53,150 bases of DNA. Origin: a virus. Taxonomy: Duplodnaviria; Heunggongvirae; Uroviricota; Caudoviricetes. The notes beneath the pieces were generated by a model, which was not told where the DNA came from, did not search any database, and worked only from the letters and a program-made list of their open reading frames with translations. Shown piece after piece: positions 1,422 through 29,200 of the stretch. Position numbers and translations under genes: made by a program. Each line of letters opens with the position of its first letter. Position 1 is the stretch's first letter. The stretch lies in IMG/VR virus record IMGVR_UViG_2537562195_000010, one strand, 5' to 3'.

Positions 1422-3893
1422 TTAAAAATCAGCCTGACTCGGGAGCAGTTTTTGCCAGATGGCTGAAACGTATTTTGCCTGGTAACGCGCATCGTGCAGC
1501 GCGTTATGGCGTTCACCTTCGAATGGAATAGTCGTTCTTGCGTCGAAATCCATCACCAGTCCCAGAGCAACCATCGTTCTTACATCGCGATCATTGGTGT
1601 AACGCCACGGGCAGGGGATCTCCTGCCGTTCATATGAACGGCGTAAAATCACGTTGTCGAAAGTTGCACCGTTACCCCAGACCTGAACAAAAAATTCACC
1701 GGAGTTTTCGTCGATAAATTCCCGGAATTGCAGCAGTGCATCATCCAACGGGATTTCATCGGTCAGAATGGCGGATTGTGCTTCGCGTGACTGTTTCAGC
1801 CACCACTTAATGGTGTCCCGATCGATGACCCCGCCTGCGGTTTCCAGATCGATAGTTTTGCTGAATTCTGGCCCCATCTCTCCGGTTGCCGGATCAAAAA
1901 ACTTACCGGCTATAGCGTTTATTGGCGCATCAGGATTTTTTCCCATTGTTTCAAGGTCAATCATCAGATGGTGCCACAACCTGCTGGTGGATGTGATTTC
2001 ATGATGACCGTTCACTTTAATTAAGGGATTTGCTGTTTCGCCAGTTTTATTATCGCTGGCGTGATACTGATCGCTGACAGTGTTCTCCTTGTGCAGATGT
2101 TCAGTGCCTTCCATTTCCTCCGGATCATTTTCCTGAGCTTCAGCCTGATTCTCTTCATCGAATGTTTCCTGGTAGGTTGCGTTCCCCATCACCGCACCAC
2201 AGTCAGGACAGTTGCCGCCACCGGTCTGACCGCATGCGGTGCAAACTTTTTCCAGTTCCTGTTGCACTGCTGGTTCTGGTTGTTGTTCTTCTGGCCCGTT
2301 TTGTTGCGTATCCGGGCTGTTTTGTTCCGCTTCTGGCTCATTTTGTTTCTCGTTGGGCTGATTCTGGTCCTCAGCGTCGCGACTCTGGATCCCTTTCACC
2401 CATTTCGGATCATCCGGGTCGCTAATCCCTTCAACAAATTCACCACGTGATGCAGCAAGCAATTTATCGGCGTCAGGCTGGCTGATATTGGCTGCCTGCA
2501 TAATTTTGTTTACTTCGTCAGCGGTAACTTTTACCGGCTCTGGTTGTTCTGAATCTTCTGCGGTATCTGTATTTTGCTGTAAGCCCGTATATGTGCCATT
2601 TTTTCGGGCAAAATATTCTTCTTTTGAGATTTCGGTACCACCGGCAGCCAGCGCCTTGTCCAGGCCAGAAAGTTTGTTTGCCCTGCCGTATTTTTCCCCG
2701 TCCTTATCGGTAAAGACGAAATAAAACGGTCCTTCACGCTCTACAGATGGTTCAGCTTCCACCAGGATTTCATTTTTTTGAGAATTGGATTCCGCCGTCT
2801 CCACTGGATCAGTTTGTGCTGCTGACGACAGGATAGCATCAGCAGAGCTCTGGTCTGTTTCTTCATGTTCAAACACGCCCTTTGTCGTCAGGTATTCGCT
2901 GATGTATTTGTTCAGTGCAACGGGATCTTTGTGAATGTCGATCGGGCGCTCACGAACAAGGCCGAAAATAGTCTGACGGTCATAGCGAAGCGCATCAGGC
3001 TGTTTGCGCATTGATGCTGAGATACGCTTCCAGTCTTCGCGATCCTTGTCGATAACCTCATTTTTAGCCCAGCGATGGATGGTACCGTCAATGTTTCCTG
3101 CATCCACATCCCCGGGCCAGAGGGCGCAGGCCAGTTCTTTATCCAGTGTTTTCCATGTCTGCCTGTATTCGCGACGAATGGCTGTAGTGACAGGGTTGAT
3201 TTTTGCTGCTGAGTTTTCGGTGAGGTGCTGGTTAACTCTGGTGCGTGCGAGATCAACAACAGACGTATATTTTCCGGTTTTCTTGCGTTCACCTTCGCGA
3301 CGTTTTTTCCAGATGCGCATCTCTGCCTGAATTTCTGGCCATTTGGCACCAGGCTTACATTTATGCTTAACCCACCCGATGGCATGCAGTTTAATCTCCG
3401 GATACATGGCGTTAACTTCTGGCATTTTCATCAACGCTTCAACGATATGTCCGTTGAAGGTTGCCATGTCTTCCTGCAACAATTCCTGTGCGCTAATCAC
3501 CATATCAACGGTGATGTTTTCACATGTGTCGAACTTAACCATGACAGCGTTCTGTACTTCAGGGGACAGCTTGTCAAAAGTGACATTCATCGGATCTGAT
3601 TCAGTCTCAACCGGGACAAAGGAAGCAGACTCCTCATCCCAGCGGTTTTCCAGCATATATTCAGCATCCCAGGAGTCGAGGGCTGGGCGGGGTGTACCGG
3701 GTTTATCCTCACAGACAAGAAATTTATAAGCGCAGTCCTGAGCAGCCGGATAATGTTCAAGGAATTGCCAGTGAAATTTTGCGCGGGCGCGACGTTCATC
3801 ACCGGCTTCAATGGCTGTGGCCACAGCAACAGCGCCCTCGTTTTTTATTGCCTGTTCGTCAGGAATGGCGGCGCAAATAAATATTTTACTCAT
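1422..3893 (-). CDS. Phage exonuclease, large form, with C-terminal DnaQ-like 3'-5' exonuclease (DEDDh) domain
   Basis: 823 aa ORF; C-terminal region has 'DLETMG', 'GNGATFD' and 'HNALHDARY' motifs consistent with a DEDDh exonuclease; central Q/E/P-rich acidic low-complexity linker; position equals the exo/recE slot of lambdoid early-left operons. Confidence 0.7.
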   Translation of the reverse strand: MSKIFICAAIPDEQAIKNEGAVAVATAIEAGDERRARAKFHWQFLEHYPAAQDCAYKFLVCEDKPGTPRPALDSWDAEYMLENRWDEESASFVPVETESDPMNVTFDKLSPEVQNAVMVKFDTCENITVDMVISAQELLQEDMATFNGHIVEALMKMPEVNAMYPEIKLHAIGWVKHKCKPGAKWPEIQAEMRIWKKRREGERKKTGKYTSVVDLARTRVNQHLTENSAAKINPVTTAIRREYRQTWKTLDKELACALWPGDVDAGNIDGTIHRWAKNEVIDKDREDWKRISASMRKQPDALRYDRQTIFGLVRERPIDIHKDPVALNKYISEYLTTKGVFEHEETDQSSADAILSSAAQTDPVETAESNSQKNEILVEAEPSVEREGPFYFVFTDKDGEKYGRANKLSGLDKALAAGGTEISKEEYFARKNGTYTGLQQNTDTAEDSEQPEPVKVTADEVNKIMQAANISQPDADKLLAASRGEFVEGISDPDDPKWVKGIQSRDAEDQNQPNEKQNEPEAEQNSPDTQQNGPEEQQPEPAVQQELEKVCTACGQTGGGNCPDCGAVMGNATYQETFDEENQAEAQENDPEEMEGTEHLHKENTVSDQYHASDNKTGETANPLIKVNGHHEITSTSRLWHHLMIDLETMGKNPDAPINAIAGKFFDPATGEMGPEFSKTIDLETAGGVIDRDTIKWWLKQSREAQSAILTDEIPLDDALLQFREFIDENSGEFFVQVWGNGATFDNVILRRSYERQEIPCPWRYTNDRDVRTMVALGLVMDFDARTTIPFEGERHNALHDARYQAKYVSAIWQKLLPSQADF

Positions 3894-3988
3894 TGTGTTT
3901 AAACCTCATTACAGATTTCAGGGTGAACGAATCCCTGCCATTGCTGGCATTTTTAATCCGTTGGTATGGCGTTAATATGGCTGGCGGG

Positions 3989-4177
3989 TTATCCTGCCGG
4001 TGTTTCGTTATTCAGGTACAGCGATACTTTGTTTAACGGGAGACATTCACCGGAAATTTTTTGCTCGTCTCTTGCCTGATGGCAGGATTCTTTACTGGCA
4101 TAAATTCCGGTAATCACATTCTGTGGCTCACCTGTTATAAGAAAAACCGTCATCATCAGTGCAAACGCTGAACTCAC
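3989..4177 (-). CDS. Small hypothetical protein with hydrophobic N-terminus
   Basis: 62 aa; GTG start preceded by GGAGG at 6 nt spacing on the minus strand; GTGA start/stop overlap with the upstream 62-aa ORF suggests translational coupling. Confidence 0.4.
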   Translation of the reverse strand: MSSAFALMMTVFLITGEPQNVITGIYASKESCHQARDEQKISGECLPLNKVSLYLNNETPAG

Positions 4178-4362
4178 TGCTGCCCTCCGAAAATGCCAAG
4201 TTCAAGAAGGGCAATTCTGGAGAGTATGGAATTATCATTGAGAAGATAAGGCTCATATTTTCTCATCCTGATGGCGTCCTCAGTAAACTCCCGGTTACTG
4301 AGCAGAATACCAATATTAAAACACCCTTCAGACGTATTAACGTTTGGTAGTGACGTTTCCAT
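4174..4362 (-). CDS. Small hypothetical protein
   Basis: 62 aa; ATG preceded by GAGGA at ~7 nt on the minus strand; coupled to the downstream small ORF. Confidence 0.35.
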   Translation of the reverse strand: METSLPNVNTSEGCFNIGILLSNREFTEDAIRMRKYEPYLLNDNSILSRIALLELGIFGGQQ

Positions 4363-4899
4363 TATCGCGTCCTCAACAATGAATTTTGTGATGTGGTGCC
4401 TGGTGCCTCCAGGTGACGTTAACCAGTTAACAATTAACGCCGGATTGTTAGTTGATGTCTGTTACGCCAGTAAAAGACCGCTTGTTTTAACTGTTCCGCG
4501 TGCGCTTAGCCGCATTCACCGCATCACAAAATACACTTTAAAAATGGCGGATATCCATTTCCGCCGAATCACCAGAAAAGTGATAACAGAGGTTGTTGTG
4601 GCGGTGTTGTCACTCAGGCGCATGGTCAACCTGACAACCCGGTACATTTTCTGGAGCAATGGAGGAAGCCCCAGCCATACTTACCGCCGCGCCATTTCGC
4701 GGATTGCCACAACCGGAAGCGCACGATCGAATTAAATTTAACGACAAGCCTTATATTCTCGCCGTGCGCTTTCGTGTTATGCCCTGACTTTTCAGGGATA
4801 TGTTCTTTCAGCAAACTGTCAGTGCCGGATTCTTATCCGTGTCCGGCGCACGACCACACGTGACAGCGTGTTGGTCTCCATCATTAACCCGGAACCTCT

Positions 4900-5085
4900 A
4901 TGGAGGATAATATGCAAGTTGATATTATTAGCCCTGTAACTGATCCATATGCTTGCGCACATCAGGCTCTTCTGGCACTAATCAACGCCGGAAAAATTGA
5001 AAATTCCGCTATGTGCTTTGAAGAGTTGAAACAACTTGTGCGCTTGTATGAATATATTAAAAAACAATCACAAGATACGGCGTAA
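4900..5085 (+). CDS. Small hypothetical protein
   Basis: 61 aa ORF with strong RBS (GGAGG, 6 nt spacing) on the plus strand, embedded in an otherwise leftward operon. Confidence 0.4.
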   Translation: MEDNMQVDIISPVTDPYACAHQALLALINAGKIENSAMCFEELKQLVRLYEYIKKQSQDTA

Positions 5086-5165
5086 TATTTAAAATACTTT
5101 CTGTTATATGTGCCTGCTATAATGCTGGCCCATATTTCTAACCCCTCTATAAGAAAAACATATTA

Positions 5166-5579
5166 TTATGGCAATTTCTTCGGTAGCTCTTCAGAAAGCT
5201 GAGTTGTTTTAATTATGGTTTTTAAATAATCATCGCTTTCACATTTGAGTGATTCTATGGCAATCCAGATGCGGGCTTCGGTGCCTGCATTTGGTTCCAG
5301 TTGTTGTAGACGTTTTGCATCTTCCAGTAGTAAGGCGATAACGTGTTTCAGCTTCTCATCATTCGCTTGATTCTTATTTTCAGGCGAATGTTGTCCGCCG
5401 AATGGCCACTTTTCTTCGTACAGCCCGATAAAGGTTCGACGCACGTTACCGGATATATTATCGACGGTTTCTTTTTCTACGGTACTCAGGTCAAGAGTCG
5501 CCAGTTGAGAGCGAACTATATTCGCTGCCATTTCCTGGAATGGTACTGGTAAATCTTTAAATTCCATCGTCAACCTCAT
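5166..5579 (-). CDS. Hypothetical early-left protein (first gene downstream of the putative PL)
   Basis: 137 aa ORF on the repressor strand, ~320 nt downstream of the putative OL/PL; not Arg-rich, so not an obvious N-type antiterminator; no family recognised. Confidence 0.5.
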   Translation of the reverse strand: MRLTMEFKDLPVPFQEMAANIVRSQLATLDLSTVEKETVDNISGNVRRTFIGLYEEKWPFGGQHSPENKNQANDEKLKHVIALLLEDAKRLQQLEPNAGTEARIWIAIESLKCESDDYLKTIIKTTQLSEELPKKLP

Positions 5580-6491: not shown

Positions 6492-6517
6492 TTTGTTGTG
6501 TTTACTAAGGAGTAGTT

Positions 6518-6799
6518 ATGGAAGAATTAAGAATATTTCTCAATTCTCTTTCGTCAGATGAACAGCGTATGTTTGCATGTGAGTGTGGTACTAGCATCGG
6601 TTATCTAAGAAAAGCATTGAGTAAAGGTCAAGTGTTAGGGGCATCGTTATGTGTCCTTATTGAGCGAGCCAGTAATGGTGAAGTTACACGTCAGCAACTA
6701 CGGCCTTTTGATTGGATGAACATTTGGCCCGAGCTGGAAGATACCCAAACGTTAACACAACCACTTTCCTGGAGCTTGATTCATGAAAATCAAGCATGA
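6518..6799 (+). CDS. Cro-like transcriptional regulator (YdaS-family HTH)
   Basis: 93 aa; '...GTSIGYLRKALSKG...LCVLIERASNGEVTRQQLRPFDW' matches the YdaS/Cro-like pattern (C..IERAT.G.V....LRPD.W); divergent from the repressor. Confidence 0.7.
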   Translation: MEELRIFLNSLSSDEQRMFACECGTSIGYLRKALSKGQVLGASLCVLIERASNGEVTRQQLRPFDWMNIWPELEDTQTLTQPLSWSLIHENQA

Positions 6800-7220
6800 A
6801 CACATCCGCATGGCAATGAATGCGTGGCTGCTTTATCCGAAGGTAGGGCGCAAAAAAATCGCTGATGATATAGCGACAGCATATTTTGAGCTTGAAATGA
6901 CTTATCCACCAATGCATGACACCTCTACGACAGAGGGTATTGGATTGAACATACAAAATATTTTTCGCTGGCTTGAAAAGGATACGCCTGATGCTGTTGA
7001 AAAAATTCAGGCACTAATTCCGGCTATCCTGACTGTTCTTCCGCGTGAACTGCGTTATCACCTCAGTATTTTTGACACTGTTGAGCGCCGTGCATTACTG
7101 GCGGCGCAGGAAGCGTTGAGCACGGCAATTGATGCACATGATGATGCAGTCCAGGCCGTTTACCGGAAAGCGTATTTCAGCGACAGCGGGTCATCCGGCG
7201 AGTCTGTTGTGGTGCATTGA
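6783..7220 (+). CDS. YdaT-like protein (possible CII-type regulator analogue)
   Basis: 145 aa ORF directly after the YdaS-like gene, the racR-ydaS-ydaT arrangement of Rac-type immunity regions; assignment by synteny and general resemblance only. Confidence 0.5.
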   Translation: MKIKHEHIRMAMNAWLLYPKVGRKKIADDIATAYFELEMTYPPMHDTSTTEGIGLNIQNIFRWLEKDTPDAVEKIQALIPAILTVLPRELRYHLSIFDTVERRALLAAQEALSTAIDAHDDAVQAVYRKAYFSDSGSSGESVVVH

Positions 7221-14157: not shown

Positions 14158-14520
14158 ATGCTCATAGAGTTGGTTTTACCTTACCCGCCGACGGTGAACA
14201 CTTACTGGCGACGCCGTGGCAGCACATATTTTGTATCAAAAGCCGGGGAGCGTTATCGCCGGGCAGTGGCGCTTATTGTTCGCCAGCAGCGACTGAAATT
14301 AAGCCTGTCCGGACGGCTGGCAATAAAAATTATTGCAGAGCCACCGGATAAGCGCCGCCGTGACCTGGACAATATTCTGAAAGCACCGCTGGATGCGCTG
14401 ACGCACGCGGGGTTGTTAATGGACGATGAGCAGTTTGATGAAATCAATATTGTACGTGGCAAGCCAGTATCTGGTGGACGGCTGGAGATAAGAATTACAG
14501 AGGTGGGTGTGCATGAATAA
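14158..14520 (+). CDS. rusA: Crossover junction endodeoxyribonuclease RusA (Holliday junction resolvase)
   Basis: 120 aa; 'PDKRRRDLDNILKAPLDALTHAGLLMDDEQ...GGRLEIRITE' matches the RusA catalytic region. Confidence 0.9.
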   Translation: MLIELVLPYPPTVNTYWRRRGSTYFVSKAGERYRRAVALIVRQQRLKLSLSGRLAIKIIAEPPDKRRRDLDNILKAPLDALTHAGLLMDDEQFDEINIVRGKPVSGGRLEIRITEVGVHE

Positions 14521-15178
14521 CCAGTATTTACAGTTTGTTCGTGAGCAACTCATGATTGCCACTGCGGATCTTAGTGGGTCGACAAAAGGCCAGCTGGAAG
14601 TCTGGCAGGAAAATGCCCTGTTCGATACAGGGCGTTGCAGACGCAAAAAAATTCGTTACCGCGATGAGGTAACCGGAAAAATGATCACGCGGGATAATCC
14701 CCCGATCCCGGGTAAACAATCACTGGCGAAAGGCTCATCAATTGCCCTGGTCAGTCCGGTTGAGTTTTCGACATCATCATGGCGACGCGCCGTTCTGTCT
14801 CTTGAAGAACATCATAAAGCCTGGCTGCTGTGGTGTTACAGCGGTAGCATTTGCTGGGAGCATCAGATCGCGATAACGCAGTGGGCGTGGACTGAATTTA
14901 ATGCTCAATCCGGTACCAGAAAAATTGCAGGAAAAACTCTGGTGCGCCTGAAGACGTTGATCTGGTTGGCGGCGCAGGCGGTAAAAGCTGAGCTTTTTGG
15001 TGGGGAAGGTTACGAATACCAGGAACTGGCGTTACTGGTGGGAGTAACAACCAAAAACTGGTCCAAGACATTTACTGGTCACTGGGTTGCAATGAAACAC
15101 ATTTTTCATCGGCTGGATAGTGAAGCTTTATTGTTGGTGGAGGGAACACGTTCAAAACAAAAGGCGGCATTTTCATAG
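14513..15178 (+). CDS. Late-gene antitermination protein Q
   Basis: 221 aa; phage antiterminator Q family by sequence character and position (after rusA, before the late promoter/terminator); ATG 14513 with GAGGTG RBS, overlapping the rusA stop. Confidence 0.8.
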   Translation: MNNQYLQFVREQLMIATADLSGSTKGQLEVWQENALFDTGRCRRKKIRYRDEVTGKMITRDNPPIPGKQSLAKGSSIALVSPVEFSTSSWRRAVLSLEEHHKAWLLWCYSGSICWEHQIAITQWAWTEFNAQSGTRKIAGKTLVRLKTLIWLAAQAVKAELFGGEGYEYQELALLVGVTTKNWSKTFTGHWVAMKHIFHRLDSEALLLVEGTRSKQKAAFS

Positions 15179-15431: not shown

Positions 15432-16145
15432 ATGGATGACAGTGCTCTGCTCAGAAACTCTTCACTTTTTGTTGCTTATATGGGCTGTCTCGGATGGGGG
15501 AGCGCTTATTTCTATGGATGGGGTACTTCATTTTACTATGGCTTTCCATGGTGGGTTGTCGGGGCTGGTGTCGATGATGTAGCACGAAGTTTGTTTTATG
15601 CTGTGACAGTTATTGTTATATTCCTTATTGGATGGGGAGTTGGTATTGTTTTCTTTTTGGGCATAAAACAAAAGCGCAATATACAAAATTTGAGTTTTAT
15701 CCGGCTTTTTCTCGCGATATTGCTGCTTTTTATTCCACCTGTTCTGGAGTTTTCTGTAATTCATCAGCATGTTGAGCCAGATGTACTGATTTTCTGTGTT
15801 CTTGCTGCCTTTGCAATCACGCTTTTTGTCAGGTCTGGAAGAAGACTTGTTTCAGTCAAATGTTTTTCGGAAATGTCTGTTATTCGCCATCACCGAATTG
15901 AGTTCATGATGGCTGGGTTTATGATTTATTTCTGGGCATTCTCTCTTATTGCCGGTTGGTACAAACCACAGTTTAAGAGGGAATATCAGACGGTCCACTA
16001 TGAGAATGTATGGTATTACATTATTGCGCGCTATGATGATCGTCTGGTGTTATCGAAATCATACAGGAGTGGGGGTAAGAAATTCGTTATATTTAATAGC
16101 GGAAATATTAATGATTTTGAAATTAATACTGTCAGAGTACGTTAA
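15432..16145 (+). CDS. Hypothetical multi-pass membrane protein (AT-rich moron)
   Basis: 237 aa; at least four hydrophobic helices (e.g. 'LFYAVTVIVIFLIGWGVGIVFFLGI') plus a C-terminal soluble ~70 aa; markedly AT-rich relative to flanking phage genes; no clear RBS. Confidence 0.5.
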   Translation: MDDSALLRNSSLFVAYMGCLGWGSAYFYGWGTSFYYGFPWWVVGAGVDDVARSLFYAVTVIVIFLIGWGVGIVFFLGIKQKRNIQNLSFIRLFLAILLLFIPPVLEFSVIHQHVEPDVLIFCVLAAFAITLFVRSGRRLVSVKCFSEMSVIRHHRIEFMMAGFMIYFWAFSLIAGWYKPQFKREYQTVHYENVWYYIIARYDDRLVLSKSYRSGGKKFVIFNSGNINDFEINTVRVR

Positions 16146-16667: not shown

Positions 16668-17726
16668 ATGTTTAATACTGTAAAAATATCCAGTTGTGAG
16701 TTAATCAACGCCGACTGCCTGGAATTTATCCGGTCGTTACCCGAAAATTCTGTTGACCTGATAGTCACGGACCCGCCGTACTTTAAAGTGAAGCCTGAGG
16801 GCTGGGATAACCAGTGGACGGGTGATGAGGATTACCTGAAATGGCTGGACCAGTGTCTGGCGCAGTTCTGGCGGGTGCTGAAACCTGCCGGAAGTCTTTA
16901 CCTGTTCCGTGGCCATCGCCTGGCGTCTGACATTGAAATCATGATGCGTGAACGCTTCAGTGTGCTGAACCATATTATCTGGGCGAAGCCGTCCGGACGC
17001 TGGAACGGGTGCAACAAGGAAAGCCTGAGGGCGTATTTCCCCGCCACAGAGCGCATTCTGTTCGCGGAACACTATCAGGGGCCGTATCGCCCGAAAGATG
17101 ATGGCTATGAGGCGAAGGGCAGGGCACTGAAACAGCATGTGATGGCTCCGCTGATTGCTTACTTTCGTGATGCGCGTGCTGCCCTGGGGATAACGGCAAA
17201 ACAGATAGTGGATGCCACAGGAAAGAAAAACATGGTGTCGCACTGGTTCAGTGCCAGTCAGTGGCAGCTACCGAACGAAAGCGATTATCTGAAATTACAG
17301 GCGCTGTTTGCCCGGGTGGCAGAAGAGAAGCATCAGCGGGGTGAACTGGAAAAGCCCCACCACCAGCTGCTGGAGACGTATACTTCACTGAACCGGCAGT
17401 ATGCGGAACTGCAGAGTGAATATAAGCATCTGCGGCGGTATTTTGGCGTGACGGCGCAGGTGCCGTACACGGATGTGTGGACGCATAAACCGGTGCAGTA
17501 CTATCCCGGGAAACATCCGTGCGAAAAACCGGCAGAAATGCTGCAGCAGATAATCAGTGCGAGCAGTCGTCCGGGTGACCTGGTTGCAGATTTCTTCATG
17601 GGGTCGGGTTCGACAGTCAAAGCCGCGATGGCGCTGGGGCGTCGTGCAACTGGCGTTGAGCTGGAGACTGAACGTTTTGAGCAGACGGTCAGGGAAGTAC
17701 AGGATTTAGTCAGTCAGAATGGATGA
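16668..17726 (+). CDS. DNA methyltransferase (beta-class N6-adenine/N4-cytosine, DPPY motif)
   Basis: 352 aa; motif IV 'DLIVTDPPY' near the N-terminus and motif I 'DFFMGSGST' near the C-terminus (beta-class order); no adjacent restriction endonuclease, so likely an orphan phage methylase. Confidence 0.85.
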   Translation: MFNTVKISSCELINADCLEFIRSLPENSVDLIVTDPPYFKVKPEGWDNQWTGDEDYLKWLDQCLAQFWRVLKPAGSLYLFRGHRLASDIEIMMRERFSVLNHIIWAKPSGRWNGCNKESLRAYFPATERILFAEHYQGPYRPKDDGYEAKGRALKQHVMAPLIAYFRDARAALGITAKQIVDATGKKNMVSHWFSASQWQLPNESDYLKLQALFARVAEEKHQRGELEKPHHQLLETYTSLNRQYAELQSEYKHLRRYFGVTAQVPYTDVWTHKPVQYYPGKHPCEKPAEMLQQIISASSRPGDLVADFFMGSGSTVKAAMALGRRATGVELETERFEQTVREVQDLVSQNG

Positions 17727-17766
17727 TATTGCAGGATTAGTTACGTACCGTTATTATCATGCGCCC

Positions 17767-17842
17767 GGCCCTTTAGCTCAGTGGTGAGAGCGAGCGACTC
17801 ATAATCGCCAGGTCGCTGGTTCAAATCCAGCAAGGGCCACCA
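17767..17842 (+). tRNA. tRNA with CAU anticodon (Met or lysidine-modified Ile2)
   Basis: Hand-folded cloverleaf: acceptor GGCCCTT/AAGGGCC, D-arm GCTC...GAGC, anticodon loop CTCATAA, T-arm GCTGG-TTCAAAT-CCAGC, encoded CCA. Confidence 0.85.
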
Positions 17843-17850
17843 TATCCATA

Positions 17851-17927
17851 CCGCCATTAGCTCATCGGGATAGAGCGCCAGCCTTCGAAGCTGGCTGCGC
17901 GGGGTTCGAGTCCTCGATGGCGGTCCA
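17851..17927 (+). tRNA. tRNA-Arg (anticodon UCG)
   Basis: Hand-folded cloverleaf: acceptor CCGCCAT/ATGGCGG, anticodon stem CCAGC/GCTGG with loop CTTCGAA, T-loop TTCGAGT, encoded CCA. Confidence 0.85.
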
Positions 17928-18205
17928 TTATCAGCATTATGCGTTGTTGGTTCTGATGAGTGAATCATTGTCTTTTGAGCAACAGGCTATCATATAAGAT
18001 AGCCTCAGACTTCCTTGTTTATTCTCGCCGGATGCTTCGTAGATATTTGCAGGCATCTGTATGCAGGGGTATTATTGCGGCATATATCATCCGGAAAAAT
18101 AAAAACTACATGCTGATCCGGAGATGATAGTTACAAGTCCTCCCGGATCCCGCATATTTACTATATTTTATAGATAATTGTTCTTGTTAATATGGAGATG
18201 GATAA

Positions 18206-18634
18206 ATGTATTGCCGTGCTGTACCGGTTCTTGTTTTGATATTAGCCAGTCTGACAACTGGCTGCACAAAAGATGTATCGACAAATAATTATGATGCTTC
18301 TCTGTATCACTCAGATAAATTAATAAAGTCACAAAATTTGAGCTCATCGGAACGTAGCCCTGATGCCAGTGAAGAAATCCGGCAGTATGCCATTCAGGTC
18401 AGGAAAGCCATAGAAGAACAGTTAAAGGATGCGAGTAAGTATTCAGGAAAAGAGTGTTCACTGAGAATGTATATGGCCCCGAATGGTCTTCTGCTACAGG
18501 TTAAAAGAGAAAGCGGTGATCCCGATTTATGTCGTGAAGCGATGAATGCAGTAAAGAATGCTGATATACCATCACCACCGTCTTCAGGAGTATATAAAGC
18601 ATTTAGAAATGGCGTGCTGGATTTTAAACTCTGA
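18206..18634 (+). CDS. Lipoprotein with TolA C-terminal (domain III)-like domain
   Basis: 142 aa; signal peptide with lipobox-like 'LTTGC'; C-terminal 'YAIQVRKAIEEQLKDASKYSGKECSLRMYMAPNGLLLQVKRESGDPDLCREAMNAVKNADIPSPPSSGVYKAFRNGVLDFKL' closely parallels the E. coli TolA C-terminus as I recall it (...GDPALC...KIPKPPSQAVYEVFKNAPLDFKP); AT-rich moron. Confidence 0.7.
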   Translation: MYCRAVPVLVLILASLTTGCTKDVSTNNYDASLYHSDKLIKSQNLSSSERSPDASEEIRQYAIQVRKAIEEQLKDASKYSGKECSLRMYMAPNGLLLQVKRESGDPDLCREAMNAVKNADIPSPPSSGVYKAFRNGVLDFKL

Positions 18635-18700
18635 CAGGGGGGAGAAGATTTTCTCCTGTCCTGATGATTTTGGGGCGCTGGAAAGATATTGTGCTGTGAA

Positions 18701-18950
18701 GTGTTAAATCCCTCACAATTCAGTAAGTTGACAGTTGCCTGTCAGACTGAGCATTTGTTAAAAAAATTTCGCATGGTGAATCCCCCTGTGCGGAGGGGCG
18801 ACTGGTGAACGGTATGATCTCTTTGATGATCGTAAGCGAGAATACGCGGGTTTGGTGTCACCGGGCTGAACTCACCGGGAGGCACCCGGCACCATGCTCA
18901 TGGTGATACAGAAATGCGGCTTCAGCCCCTCTCCGGAGGGGCTTTCTTAT
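18701..18950 (+). repeat. Structured repeat unit A (family of five; possible sRNA gene or promoter-terminator cassette)
   Basis: Contains the conserved blocks 'GTTAAATCCCTCACA', 'TTGTTAAAAAAA', hairpin 'GGTGAATCCCCCTGTGCGGAGGGGC', hairpin 'CACCGGGAGGCACCCGGCACC' and terminator 'GCCCCTC-TCCG-GAGGGGC-TTTCTT' (18925-18948). Confidence 0.7.
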
Positions 18951-19110
18951 GGACAAAAAAAGCCCGCGCTGGGAGACGCGGGCGGCAAGGAATAAACAAT
19001 AAAACGTGAAGTAATACTTCAACTGGCGAATAATACCCGACAGTAATCACTCTGCGCAATAGCGTGGCCTTTTTCGAATTGCGGGCTGTAGTCTCCCTTC
19101 TGCTGGGTGT

Positions 19111-19266
19111 CCTGGTTGCAGATTTCTTCATGGGGTAGGGTTCGGCAGTTAAAGCAGCGATGGCGCTGGGGCGTCGTGCAACTGGCGTTGAGCTGGATAC
19201 CGGGCGTTTTGAACAGACTGCGCAGGAAATCAGGGATGTATTTAGCGGGAGCGGTTTGCAGAAGTA
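19111..19266 (+). pseudogene. Remnant of a DNA methyltransferase 3' end (duplicate of the C-terminus of the 16668..17726 gene)
   Basis: Near-identical to 17578-17726 ('CCTGGTTGCAGATTTCTTCATGGGG...GGCGTCGTGCAACTGGCGTTGAGCTGGA...') but with an in-frame TAG ('FFMG*') and no upstream gene body. Confidence 0.6.
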
Positions 19267-19330
19267 ATCTCCCAAAATGCCATTTTTGGAATATACTGGT
19301 ATTAAGTCTTTTTGCTAAGGTTAATTCAAA

Positions 19331-20056
19331 ATGGATGTTGCCTGCTCTGTGGTCCTGATTCGCTATCCGATAGATATTTTTCTTGAAAAAGAAAAAGTTT
19401 CACTCGATGCCGGAAGTGTTATGCTTGTTGCCAGAAATATAAGAGGGCTTTTCTGTGCTTATGCCGACAGAGTGAAAATGGCAGATATAAGTAACAGCGT
19501 CGTCAATCAGTATCTGGAAAGGGAGTGTGAACTGACGGAGTATACACCGACAAAAATTCCTCTTTATTTGATGTCTGATATTTACAATACGGAACTGGCG
19601 GAGGCTTTAATAACCCAGCATAGTGAATCCAGTGATACTTTGAAGGATTTCTCTGTTATAACCGCATTTTCATGTATCTCCTTATTTGCAACAGACAGAC
19701 GTCTGCCATTATTTTTGTCCGGTGCTGTAAATAATATCAGCTGTAAAGTAAGGGCTATAATTCAGACCGACATATCGGCAGGCTGGATGCTTGGTGTGAT
19801 TGCATTACAATTGCATATGAGCGAAAGCTTGTTGAAGCGAAAACTTAAGGATGAAGGTTATAGCTTTAGTCGGTTGTTGCTGGAGGAGCGAATGCGTGTT
19901 GCTGTTAATCTTGTATGTTTCCAGCGAGAGTGTGGACAAGCGATAGCGGAAAAATGTGGTTACTCAAGTAAGTCCTACTTCATTTCTGTATTTCACCAGT
20001 ATTATGGTGCACCACCTGAGAGCTATGCATATTTGCAGAAAGCAGACGTTATCTGA
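19331..20056 (+). CDS. AraC/XylS-family transcriptional regulator (prophage-encoded)
   Basis: 241 aa; C-terminal double-HTH region '...LHMSESLLKRKLKDEGYSFSRLLLEERMRVAVNLV...IAEKCGYSSKSYFISVFHQYYGAPP' typical of AraC-type regulators; AT-rich island. Confidence 0.75.
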   Translation: MDVACSVVLIRYPIDIFLEKEKVSLDAGSVMLVARNIRGLFCAYADRVKMADISNSVVNQYLERECELTEYTPTKIPLYLMSDIYNTELAEALITQHSESSDTLKDFSVITAFSCISLFATDRRLPLFLSGAVNNISCKVRAIIQTDISAGWMLGVIALQLHMSESLLKRKLKDEGYSFSRLLLEERMRVAVNLVCFQRECGQAIAEKCGYSSKSYFISVFHQYYGAPPESYAYLQKADVI

Positions 20057-20144: not shown

Positions 20145-20423
20145 GTGAATATTGATGAGAAAATCAGATGTAGCCAACTGTTACAGCGTATTGAAGCCGT
20201 CAATGTGGAACGAACAAAGGTCTTCAGTCGTCTGACAGTTTTATTTTGTACCCCTGATCGACGTTCAGGTCAGGAGATGGTTCTTCTGGATGTAGATGCA
20301 CTTCGGAACGTCTGTGAGGAGTTCACCGCGGCTAATTCGGAGTTACTGAGTCTTGTTCAGGAGTACAACAGAATTGCAGGTAGTAACGGTTTTGATGAAA
20401 TCAAAATTATATCCCGTGGATAA
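20145..20423 (+). CDS. Hypothetical protein downstream of the AraC-family regulator
   Basis: 92 aa ORF with GTG start; AT-rich; no family recognised. Confidence 0.4.
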   Translation: MNIDEKIRCSQLLQRIEAVNVERTKVFSRLTVLFCTPDRRSGQEMVLLDVDALRNVCEEFTAANSELLSLVQEYNRIAGSNGFDEIKIISRG

Positions 20424-20671: not shown

Positions 20672-20907
20672 ATGTTAAATGACTCACAATTCGGTTGATG
20701 GGCTATTGTCTGATCGATGGAAGTCTTGTAAAAACGAGCCAGCATAGTGAATCCCCCTGTGCGGAGGGGCGTCTGACATGGTCTCCATAGCGATGGTCAC
20801 AATACGCAGATTCAGTAGTCAGGCTGAATCTACCGGGAGGCACCCGGCACTATGCTGCTTATGGTGTATACATAGCGATCGGCCCCTCTCCGGAGGGGCT
20901 TTTTTTG
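20672..20907 (+). repeat. Structured repeat unit B
   Basis: Same conserved blocks as unit A ('GTTAAATGACTCACA', 'AGTGAATCCCCCTGTGCGGAGGGGC', 'TACCGGGAGGCACCCGGCAC', terminator 'GGCCCCTCTCCGGAGGGGCTTTTTTT'). Confidence 0.7.
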
Positions 20908-20929
20908 TGCGGGAAAAGGCTGTGTTGTT

Positions 20930-21175
20930 AAGTGTTAAATTCCTCACAGTTCAGATGGTTGATGCTTGCCTGTCTGAGGGGGAGTTGTTAAAAAAGTTCT
21001 GCATGGTGAATCCCCCTGTGCGGAGGGGCGACTGGTATGATTTGCATCTTTTCTGTTGTAGGCAATGCAAACGCGGGTTCAGGGACACCAGACTGGACTC
21101 ACCGGGAGGCACCCGGCACCATGTTCATGATGATACAGATACGCAGTGTCAGCCCCTCTCCTGAGGGGCTTTTTT
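20930..21175 (+). repeat. Structured repeat unit C
   Basis: Same conserved blocks; terminator 'AGCCCCTCTCCTGAGGGGCTTTTTT' at 21151-21175; variable central segment. Confidence 0.7.
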
Positions 21176-21202
21176 ATGCAGGAAAAACGCTGTGTTGTGA
21201 AA

Positions 21203-21436
21203 TGTTAAATTCCTCACAGTTCAGATGGTTGATGCTTGCCTGTCTTACGGGGAGTTGTTAAAAAAGTTCTGCATGGTGAATCCCCCTGAGCGGAGGGGCA
21301 TATCAGCGCAGGTGTTTCTACTCTATCCTTTCTGTGCGGGTTCAGGTGCTGATACTGAACTCACCGGGAGGCACCCGGCATCATGCATATGGTTAACAGA
21401 CAAGTAGCGAAGCCCCTCTCCGGAGGGGCTTTTTTA
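21203..21436 (+). repeat. Structured repeat unit D
   Basis: Same conserved blocks; terminator at 21411-21436. Confidence 0.7.
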
Positions 21437-21462
21437 TGCAGGGAAAAGGCTGTGTTGTGAAA

Positions 21463-21690
21463 TGTTAAATTCCTCACAATTCATGAGGTTGATGATTGTC
21501 TGATTGATGAGGAGTTTGTTAAAAAAAACGGGCATGGTGAATCCCCCTGTGCGGAGGGGTGATATCGTATCATTTCCTGTGTGGCCGACTGATATCACGG
21601 ACATTTGTTCACCGGGAGGCACCCGGCACCATGCAGTATACAGAGATTAGGCATACATCCAGGCTCCTCATCGCAGGAGCCTTTTTACAT
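21463..21690 (+). repeat. Structured repeat unit E
   Basis: Same conserved 5' blocks; central segment forms its own inverted repeat ('GTGATATCG...CGACTGATATCAC'); different terminator hairpin 'GGCTCCT-CATCGC-AGGAGCC-TTTTTA'. Confidence 0.65.
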
Positions 21691-21918
21691 GTAAAAAAAA
21701 CCGCTCCTGGGAAGAGCGGTTGGCAAGGAAGCAAGGAATAAATAACAAAACGTGAAGTAATTTATTCAGCACCCTAATAATACCTTAGAGTAATCACCTT
21801 GCGCAACTGTAAGGGCGTATTTCTTTTTTGCGGGCTGTTTTTCTGTGTGACTTTTGTGTTTCCGGAGGTCAGCCCGTGCCTTCTCTGACTCAGAACATTA
21901 TCCCGGCCGGGAGGATTC

Positions 21919-27679: not shown

Positions 27680-27811
27680 ATGTCAGACAAACTCATAACG
27701 CTGGCGAAGGGCCTTTGTGTAATCGTCGGTATTTCATTTTCACTAATGCTGGTTGTTCTTTTTCTTTCCATAACCTGGATGGCGTTGACTTCGGCAGGGC
27801 TGGTGGGGTGA
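27680..27811 (+). CDS. Small hydrophobic peptide (43 aa)
   Basis: '[43 protein letters not shown]'; AAGGGG RBS; stop overlaps the candidate GTG start of Rz. Confidence 0.3.
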
Positions 27812-27822
27812 GCATAAACCGA

Positions 27823-28281
27823 ATGCTTTCCGCGTTTACCGTTATTCTGCTGGTGGTCTGTGGTGCGCTTAGTCTGGGGCTGAATCATTACCGCGATAAC
27901 GCCATCACCTACAAAGCGCAGCGCGATAAAAAAGCCAGAGAGCTGGAGCTGGCAAACGCAACCATTACTGATATGCAGGTGCGCCAGCGCGATGTTGCTG
28001 CGCTCGATGCAAAATACTCGAGGGAATTAGCCGATGCGAGAGCTGAAAATGAAACTCTGCGTGCTGATGTTGCCGCTGGTCGTAAGCGCCTGCGGATCAA
28101 CGCCACCTGCTCCGGTACCGTGCGTGAAGCCACCGGCACCTCCGGCGTGGGCAATGATGCCGCCGTCGAGCTCTCTCCGGTTGCTGGACGAAACGTTCTC
28201 GGTATCAGAGACGGAATCATCAGCGACCAGGCTGCATTGAGAATGCTTCAGGAATATATCCGCACTCAGTGTATTAACTAG
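27823..28281 (+). CDS. Rz i-spanin
   Basis: 152 aa from '[36 protein letters not shown]...'; N-terminal TM anchor plus coiled-coil periplasmic domain; alternative GTG start at 27808. Confidence 0.8.
28034..28240 (+). CDS. Rz1 o-spanin (lipoprotein embedded in the +1 frame of Rz)
   Basis: '[39 protein letters not shown]...': lipobox VSAC and Pro-rich mature part; fully nested in Rz. Confidence 0.7.
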
Positions 28282-28867: not shown

Positions 28868-29200
28868 ATGAAAATGAAAAGAAATCTTCCGTTAATTATT
28901 TTGTTGTCTTCTCTGGTTATGGGCTGTACGCAACATAAAACAGATATGCCCCGACAGTTGGTTAAGGCATTACCACAATATCCGGCCTATGCAGCGGCAA
29001 ATTATATAAAGGGACGGGTTGATGTGAAGTTTGATATTGGTGCTGATGGTACTGTCACCCGAATTGAGTTTATCCGTTCAGAGCCGCACCATCTGTTTGA
29101 TGAGCAGGTTGTAAAGGCGATGGCAAAATGGCGATTTGAGAAGGACAGGCCGCGTAAAGGCGTGAAGAAAACGTTTATCTTTAGTCCTTCTGCACCCTGA
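28868..29200 (+). CDS. Lipoprotein with TonB C-terminal domain
   Basis: 'MKMKRNLPLIILLSSLVMGC' lipoprotein signal (lipobox LVMGC) followed by 'LPQYPAYAAANYIKGRVDVKFDIGADGTVTRIEFIRSEPHHLFDEQVVKAMAKWRFE', the TonB_C signature (YP..A......G.V.V.F.I..DG.V....I..S.....FD..A..A...WRF); start could also be GTG 28859 or ATG 28874. Confidence 0.7.
   Translation: MKMKRNLPLIILLSSLVMGCTQHKTDMPRQLVKALPQYPAYAAANYIKGRVDVKFDIGADGTVTRIEFIRSEPHHLFDEQVVKAMAKWRFEKDRPRKGVKKTFIFSPSAP

Follow-up and report, generated by a model that had tools for sequence, protein, structure and literature searches.

A lambdoid prophage lipoprotein with TolA domain III in the Shiga toxin slot: a candidate decoy for Tol-dependent colicins and phages

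The DNA analysed here, called the window throughout its full length of 53,150 nucleotides, is a sequence of the class Caudoviricetes (IMG/VR record IMGVR_UViG_2537562195_000010) that carries, in the place where Stx2a phages encode Shiga toxin, an open reading frame (ORF) for a small lipoprotein whose C-terminal part is a complete domain III of TolA (TolA-III). This domain and the C-terminal domain of TonB (TonB-CTD) are periplasmic hubs engaged for entry by group A and group B bacteriocins, microcins, and filamentous and T1/phi80-type phages. The reading preferred here, given about an even chance, is that the window protein is an outer-membrane-tethered periplasmic decoy for invaders that bind TolA. 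The resemblance to TolA is not new, as PGAP, RAST and Pfam already label such genes TolA; it is the function that appears to be the unexplored part, the only allusion met in the literature being a passing remark on the "TolA" and "TolB family" genes of a cloacin plasmid (PMC10269471).

The ORF (coordinates of this and of all other features are collected in Table 1) is complete, and its product consists of a lipoprotein signal peptide, a disordered linker and TolA-III, with no further domain or motif being found in it by profile scans. The signal peptide passes a strict lipobox expression of the PROSITE PS51257 type ([LIVMFWSTAG]2-[LIVMFYSTAGCQ]-[AGS]-C, the preceding six residues being uncharged), by virtue of the motif LTTG-C with Cys20 as the predicted lipidation site; the residue at +2 is Thr and not the Asp that confers avoidance of the Lol pathway, so that sorting to the outer membrane is expected. 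In the AlphaFold2 model the predicted local distance difference test (pLDDT) is below 50 across residues 13-50, and the linker is poorly conserved, its ratio of nonsynonymous to synonymous substitutions (dN/dS) being 0.41 as compared with 0.28 in the domain. Copies that are 100% identical to the window protein are annotated "tolA" in E. coli genomes.

Residues 50-140 match positions 5-96 of the 96 positions of the Pfam profile PF06519 (E=3.9e-23, 81.9 bits against a cut-off of 25), and phmmer, run against the PDB, finds E. coli TolA-III in the entries 1s62, 3qdp, 2x9a and 1tol with E values of ~1e-25. In an ungapped register residues 54-142 share 45 of 89 positions (51%) with residues 333-421 of E. 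coli TolA, including the two pairs of motifs GDPDLC (phage protein) and GDPALC (TolA), and IPSPPSSGVYKAFRNGVLDFK (phage protein) and IPKPPSQAVYEVFKNAPLDFK (TolA). The AlphaFold2 model, for which an alignment of 25 family sequences was the input, is confident from residue 51 to residue 142 (pLDDT ~90) and disordered before; Foldseek superimposes it on 2x9a_B and 1tol with a root-mean-square deviation of 0.8 Å over 87-88 columns and a template-modelling score, TM(target), of 0.94. Furthermore, C84 and C109 align with C363 and C388 of TolA; both cysteines are invariant throughout the family, a disulfide between them being predicted from the alignment, and both are kept, together with the fold, down to 31% identity. 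The initial annotation had described the ORF as a lipoprotein whose C-terminal region parallels TolA nearly position by position, had quoted the two motifs, and had suggested that a predicted model be compared with TolA-III structures; the data above bear it out on all these points.

The two edges of TolA-III at which ligands dock are known. Strand β3 (A415-K420) is the edge used by the N1 domain of g3p (g3p-N1), by colicin N and by the N-terminus of TolB, all through β-strand addition, and the single substitutions D418P or K420P abolish the binding of these three ligands and cause a full tol phenotype (PMC4339652). Colicin A uses the opposite edge, β2 (L375-P380), with additional cation-π contacts to K368, K379 and K396 (PMC3365938). 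In the phage protein β3 reads L138-D139-F140-K141, equivalent to L417-K420 of TolA and with no proline at the positions of D418 and K420, and β2 reads L96-L97-Q98-V99-K100-R101; two of the three lysines contacting colicin A are likewise retained, K379 as K100 and K396 as K117. Judged from the alignment, both docking edges are conserved, and the binding of the ligands themselves is predicted.

What the phage protein shares with the TolA of the Tol-Pal system (E. coli, 421 residues; structures 1tol, 2x9a, 3qdp/3qdr, 1s62) is domain III with its pair of disulfide-forming cysteines, its β2 and β3 edges and the C-terminal LDFK; the parts that couple TolA to energy are missing. There is no transmembrane anchor (domain I), the N-terminus being a lipoprotein signal peptide, and no long Ala/Lys-rich α-helical domain II, the gap between Cys20 and the domain amounting to ~32 residues predicted to be disordered. 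The NCBIfam TolA models match with their last ~95 positions only (266-361 and 294-386), and PRK09510 scores 103, under its cut-off of 213. On the other hand, domain III alone passes the cut-off of TIGR02794 (75.9 vs 59.45), and this is evidently why PGAP names a 142-residue protein "cell envelope integrity protein TolA", a name that is an over-annotation. Since domains I and II are absent, the protein can be neither energised by TolQ-TolR nor a replacement for TolA. Whereas TolA is anchored by an inner-membrane helix, lipid would tether the phage protein, the outer membrane being its probable location. In addition, the gene lies outside a tolQ-tolR-tolA-tolB-pal operon, among the late genes of a lambdoid prophage located beside ompW, between tRNA and lysis genes.

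The locus is defined by comparison with the Stx2a phage LC567842, the homology with which (97%) extends through the methylase and two tRNA genes up to window position 17948 and resumes at 18713, directly after the stop codon of stx2B. Between these conserved flanks a discrete segment of 764 bp has been exchanged for a tRNA-Arg gene and stx2AB, which is the structure expected of a moron. The placement of the gene at the stx-equivalent locus, downstream of Q and of the tRNA genes, as proposed in the initial annotation, is therefore exact; as to the description "highly expressed moron site", the cassette swap at the stx site agrees with it, and a high expression is deduced from the position only, no promoter of its own being demonstrable for the gene. 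The same locus, 99.9% identical, is found in E. coli 2014C-4587 as a lambdoid prophage next to ompW, the order being Q, a 237-residue membrane protein, a small ORF, a DNA methyltransferase, two tRNAs, the TolA-III gene, an AraC-type regulator, a NanS-p-type esterase, holin, lysozyme, Rz/Rz1 and terminase.

The gene is widespread. By blastn it is present in 897 of 5426 complete E. coli genomes, 88 of which carry it at an identity of at least 99% and 772 as the 80%-identical allele resembling that of phage mEp460; in mEp460 it likewise lies between Q and the lysis genes, and in Salmonella prophages between Q and the holin gene. The comparison of the window and mEp460 alleles gives a dN/dS of 0.35 overall and of 0.28 in the domain at a dS of ~0.45-0.6, values from which the gene is judged to be under purifying selection. 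The DNA homology between these two alleles (18206-18265 of the window against L001 6001-6060) does not begin until the Cys codon of the lipobox (nucleotide 55 of the ORF), so that the signal peptides and upstream regions are unrelated and a mosaic joint lies within the gene.

Profile searches reveal stand-alone proteins of ~125-160 residues with the same architecture in dozens of clusters at 50% identity, spread across many lineages and including proteins encoded on Serratia chromosomes; PHROGs lists the family (phrog_5772) as "unknown function". The strict lipobox is found in 11 of 11 branch representatives and in 36 of 43 short cluster representatives, and Asp at +2 in none of the representatives of either kind. 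The copies on mobile elements are 31-67% identical to E. coli TolA-III, as against 87-93% for the TolA-III orthologues of other host genera, and a recent capture of the host tolA was considered and rejected, since no DNA-level match to chromosomal tolA is seen (897 of the 5426 genomes match) and the protein identity to enterobacterial TolA-III is 51-58%. By its divergence the family is to be regarded as an old, fast-evolving accessory lineage and not as a recent fragment of a host gene.

The window encodes a companion of this protein. Just downstream of Rz/Rz1 lies the gene of a 108-residue lipoprotein (LVMG-C, with Thr at +2) the mature part of which is a TonB-CTD (Pfam PF03544, E=5e-15; PDB entries of TonB-CTD, E ~3e-16, 42% identity). 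This gene occurs in 415 of the 5426 E. coli genomes, in phage 21 and in Stx1a phages. The label "Rz-like spanin" that PHROGs gives to it (phrog_1267) was rejected, as separate Rz/Rz1 genes are present at 27715-28281 and 28034-28240 and the domain is TonB_C.

Elsewhere the two domains are joined more closely. In two diverged forms TonB_C and TolA-III are fused in single phage lipoproteins, one (P0109/P0121/P0128) encoded on a phage contig between a DNA methylase and holins, the other (P0179) in the nin region of a lambdoid prophage between P and NinG. In pGSU10-3-4, a 10-kb ColRNAI plasmid of Klebsiella carrying a bacteriocin of the colicin-E3/cloacin type with its immunity and lysis genes, the TolA-III lipoprotein gene overlaps by 4 bases (ATGA) a TonB-CTD gene endowed with a signal peptide; the TolA-III allele of this plasmid is found on about 374 plasmid records. 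The TolA-III lipoprotein is encoded also by an Enterobacter plasmid for a pore-forming colicin and by a Klebsiella plasmid for a lysozyme-like bacteriocin, and, next to the gene of a thioredoxin-fold protein, by IncFIB(K) plasmids; in one of the small bacteriocin plasmids (L013) the gene of an unassigned 134-residue lipoprotein (6515-6919) lies just upstream of the TolA-III gene. F-like plasmids, among them pO157, have the gene of a more distantly related TolA-III lipoprotein (FVAG-C; Pfam E=5e-14) within their leading region after psiB-psiA-hok. The pili of these plasmids attract the TolA-dependent Ff phages, and the position of the gene is suggestive of protection against such pilus-specific filamentous phages.

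Table 1. Coordinates of the features of the window and of related genes on other replicons
Feature	Coordinates	Strand	Basis or remark
TolA domain-III lipoprotein ORF, complete (ATG, 142 residues + stop)	18206..18634	+	ORF list; Pfam, NCBIfam and PDB matches
GGAG ribosome-binding site (Shine-Dalgarno), 8 nt 5' of the ATG	18194..18197	+	read from the sequence
Lipoprotein signal peptide, lipobox LTTG-C, Cys20 codon 18263-18265	18206..18265	+	strict PROSITE-like expression
Linker, ~32 residues (mature residues 21-52), Ser/Asn/Asp-rich, predicted disordered	18266..18361	+	AlphaFold2 pLDDT
TolA domain III, residues 53-142; C84, C109, β2 L96-R101, β3 L138-K141	18362..18631	+	profile, alignment, model
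Cassette, 764 bp, in place of the third tRNA (Arg) and stx2A-stx2B of Stx2a phages	17949..18712	+	blastn breakpoints against LC567842
Two phage tRNA genes 5' of the cassette: anticodon CAT, and Arg-TCG	17767..17927	+	tRNA calls
Antiterminator Q, head of the late operon containing the cassette	14513..15178	+	PGAP on 99.9%-identical locus; ORF list
237-residue multi-pass membrane protein, directly 3' of Q	15432-16145	+	phrog_1521 (unknown function)
STnc100 small-RNA-family copy, first of five, ~100 nt after the ORF stop	18742..18954	+	Rfam RF02076, 172 bits; blastn
STnc100 copies 2-5	20713-20908; 20972-21181; 21243-21439; 21503-21692	+	Rfam RF02076
114-bp duplicate of the DNA methyltransferase 3' end	19105-19218	+	copy of 17573-17686
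AraC-family regulator (241 residues), second cassette	19331-20056	+	
92-residue ORF, second cassette	20145-20423	+	phrog_2873
108-residue lipoprotein (LVMG-C, Thr at +2), mature part TonB-CTD, just 3' of Rz/Rz1	28874..29200	+	Pfam, PDB, lipobox
TonB_C/TolA-III fusion P0109/P0121/P0128	L006 1323-2024		phage contig
TonB_C/TolA-III fusion P0179	L017 6001-6630		lambdoid prophage
TolA-III lipoprotein and overlapping secreted TonB-CTD genes	L009 (NZ_AP018675) 3526-3897 and 3894-4259		
TolA-III lipoprotein genes on small bacteriocin plasmids (Klebsiella/Enterobacter)	L010 5983-6405; L013 7001-7438		
TolA-III lipoprotein of pO157	L016 (NZ_CP120945) 4842-5273		better start lies after the first 12 annotated codons

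The decoy reading envisages the following sequence of events. After export the lipoprotein would receive its lipid at Cys20 and be delivered to the outer membrane, in whose inner leaflet it would sit, the flexible tether of ~32 residues presenting a disulfide-bonded copy of TolA-III to the periplasm; the two exposed β-sheet edges would then capture, as they do in TolA, the TolA-binding epitopes of invaders emerging through the outer membrane. The targets would be the group A colicins and related bacteriocins, whether these engage TolA directly (A, N, K, E1) or through the N-terminus of TolB (E2-E9, cloacin), and the g3p of filamentous phages. Not being energised, the complexes so formed would be dead ends and the lysogen would be tolerant or the invader excluded, whereas the TonB-CTD lipoprotein would do likewise for the Ton route and its users, namely group B colicins, microcins and T1/phi80-type phages. 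A partial interference with the Tol-Pal cycle of the host is expected as a side effect.

The principle that a periplasmic copy of one partner blocks the import of colicins or phages has laboratory precedents. Soluble TolA-III or TonB C-terminal fragments in the periplasm reportedly give tol or ton phenotypes. Periplasmic g3p-N1, for its part, sequesters TolA and brings about tolerance to colicin A and a 4-log lower phage uptake (PMC10424213). These fragments, however, are engineered and overproduced, whereas the construct of the window is a natural one, predicted to be lipid-tethered, carried by a mobile element, diverged from the host copy and, by its substitution ratio, under selection.

Among natural systems, Cor (phi80, N15, mEp phages), Llp (T5) and TraT (F) are outer-membrane lipoproteins of mobile elements that block entry routes. 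Like them, the window protein is a small lipoprotein of a mobile element in an accessory (moron) position, and like them it may protect its carrier; unlike them, it would act by mimicking an energy-transducing hub of the periplasm and would bind the invader or partners of that hub, whereas the target of Cor, Llp and TraT is a receptor in the outer membrane (FhuA, OmpA) and none of the three copies a host protein. Profile scans detected no sequence relationship with these three proteins, the likeness to which rests on general knowledge. Colicin immunity proteins would likewise protect against bacteriocins and are encoded on the same plasmids as TolA-III lipoproteins (L009, L010, L013), but the two are not homologous, and an immunity protein neutralises one cognate cytotoxic domain at or after delivery, whereas a TolA-III lipoprotein would act during translocation and across many toxins.

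The suggestion of the initial annotation that the protein might be a decoy or competitor conferring exclusion or colicin tolerance, or might modulate Tol-Pal, is considerably strengthened by the TonB-CTD lipoprotein, the TonB_C fusions, the adjacent genes of the bacteriocin plasmids and the conserved docking edges. Indeed, that both TolA-III and TonB-CTD should have been captured independently, provided with export or lipidation signals and repeatedly fused or placed side by side, on plasmids encoding bacteriocins or the receptor of Ff phages, makes interference with import hard to replace as an explanation. By extension, it is conceivable, at a likelihood placed somewhat short of even, that the lipid-tethered or secreted copies of the TolA and TonB C-terminal domains borne by the mobile elements of Enterobacterales constitute a general and previously unrecognised layer of "translocation-level immunity", the carriers being lambdoid prophages, small bacteriocin plasmids, IncF(K) plasmids and the leading regions of F-like plasmids, with the window gene as one member, lodged in the stx slot of a phage of the Stx type.

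Several considerations weigh against the decoy. A search of the full-text literature, subscription journals lying outside its scope, found no functional study of, or binding data on, any member of the family, and PADLOC has no model for a TolA-III or TonB-CTD protein. The affinities of TolA for its ligands are modest, ~1 µM for colicin N and g3p and 40 µM for TolB (PMC4339652), so that a decoy would need to be present in a substantial copy number; moreover, a disturbance of Tol-Pal is to be expected as its cost. The third lysine contacting colicin A, K368, is replaced by Tyr in the phage protein, many of the copies residing in cryptic prophages have suffered frameshifts or truncation (P0019-P0029, P0037), and the TolA-III and TonB-CTD genes are not always found together, mEp460 having only the former. 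Finally, in view of its Q-dependent late position, the gene may be expressed only after induction, when the protection of the cell matters less.

If the domain does not intercept invaders, the strongest rival, held to be unlikely all the same, is that it weakens the envelope: as a dominant-negative inhibitor of Tol-Pal it would titrate the N-terminus of TolB or Pal and loosen the outer membrane, so that expression from the late operon would aid lysis and virion release or promote vesiculation and periplasmic leakage, and on plasmids the release of bacteriocins. That a block of TolA-TolB binding results in a full tol phenotype with leakage of proteins (PMC4339652) and that tol mutants hypervesiculate (reviewed in PMC12415872) speak for it, as do the position of the gene in the late operon immediately 5' of the lysis cassette in four diverged phages (window, mEp460, Salmonella prophage, L006) and the vicinity of the plasmid copies to colicin lysis genes. 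However, the phage of the window already possesses holin, endolysin and Rz/Rz1, the P0179 fusion lies in the early nin region, far from lysis genes, and the copies of F-like plasmids are in the leading region, likewise away from them; TolB is the weakest known ligand of TolA-III (~40 µM), and the repeated coupling to TonB-CTD remains unexplained, as the loss of TonB does not weaken the envelope.

Also improbable is the re-purposing of the domain for a ligand outside the known partners of TolA, such as an envelope protein, peptidoglycan or a factor of the animal host, which would make the gene a fitness or virulence moron. An identity of 31-67% to E. coli TolA-III, as against 87-93% among host orthologues, implies that the surfaces have drifted much, the site is used for toxins and other genes of lysogenic conversion, and some chromosomal members have no obvious phage context (in Serratia by icd, in Salmonella by katG and a two-partner-secretion locus); yet conservation in the prophage, Serratia and most plasmid branches is highest in the β3 edge LDF(K/R) and the disulfide, the association with bacteriocin plasmids and TonB-CTD points to the biology of import, and no other domain or motif is present in the protein. 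As to a functionless hitch-hiker, that is a captured tolA fragment persisting through a hot spot of lambdoid recombination, the frequency of frameshifted or truncated alleles in E. coli prophages and a promoter scan of the region yielding no site above the expectation from shuffled sequences would be in keeping with it. It is nevertheless very improbable, in the face of purifying selection (dN/dS 0.28-0.35 at dS ~0.45-0.6), of a secretion/lipidation signal acquired and kept in all branches, of cysteines and fold conserved down to 31% identity, and of an architecture shared by the copies on phages, on chromosomes and on plasmids of three kinds.

Concerning the expression of the TolA-III gene, it is co-oriented with the Q-dependent late operon. 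The promoter scan, which covered positions 17700-19400, gave 3 sites versus 2.9 expected from shuffles, among them one weak σ70-like site at 18046-18075, and 3' of the ORF there is no canonical terminator, the hairpin after the stop codon having no U-tract. A scan for Fur boxes gave at best 12 of 19 matches upstream of the TolA-III gene and 13 of 19 at 35 nt upstream of the TonB-like gene, neither above chance, and a scan for LexA boxes found none nearby. A CP-933O gene induced 32-fold by ciprofloxacin, EDL933_2012, is linked to "TolA" in the text of one study and is a tail fibre protein in its supplement (PMC11125564), and was not used as evidence of expression.

The surroundings of the gene display further features. 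The tRNA with anticodon CAT (17767-17842) is assigned to Met by ARAGORN and to Ile by PGAP, presumably as a lysidine-modified tRNA of the ileX/ileZ type, and the third tRNA (Arg) of the Stx2a phage is absent from the window prophage because the cassette swap removed it. All five copies of the STnc100 element (119-172 bits) fall in the stretch bounded by the genes of the TolA-III protein and the NanS-p esterase, and the same element is located 3' of stx2B in Stx2a phages. The duplicate of the methyltransferase 3' end borders a second cassette, which consists of the AraC-family regulator and a 92-residue ORF; in a different E. coli prophage (L011/L012) it is the AraC-type gene that comes first and the TolA-III gene that follows, the two thus recurring as neighbours in differing order. 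The 237-residue membrane protein has no match in the local Pfam copy, while its neighbour of identical length in L011 is labelled PF27470 "TfpB"; neither this protein nor the AraC-like one is matched by the PADLOC defence models.

Thousands of phage and plasmid annotations as "TolA" or "TonB family protein" mislead, and the diverged TolA-III and TonB-CTD variants of such elements are at hand for dissecting the specificity of β-strand addition. If the decoy reading is true, import through Tol and Ton has a natural, horizontally transferred counter-measure that acts before the toxin reaches its target and is not specific to a given toxin, by a logic unlike that of immunity proteins or of receptor loss. 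This would bear on the survival of Shiga toxin-producing E. coli and of Klebsiella in the colicin and klebicin warfare of the gut, and would matter for biocontrol by colicins and other bacteriocins; it would bear, too, on the tolerance by F-like plasmids of the liability to filamentous phages that their pili entail, and on the nature of the cargo that alternates with Shiga toxin at one and the same phage locus. Should translocation-level immunity be general, its carriers would broadly tolerate the bacteriocins of groups A and B and would keep out filamentous and TonB-dependent phages.

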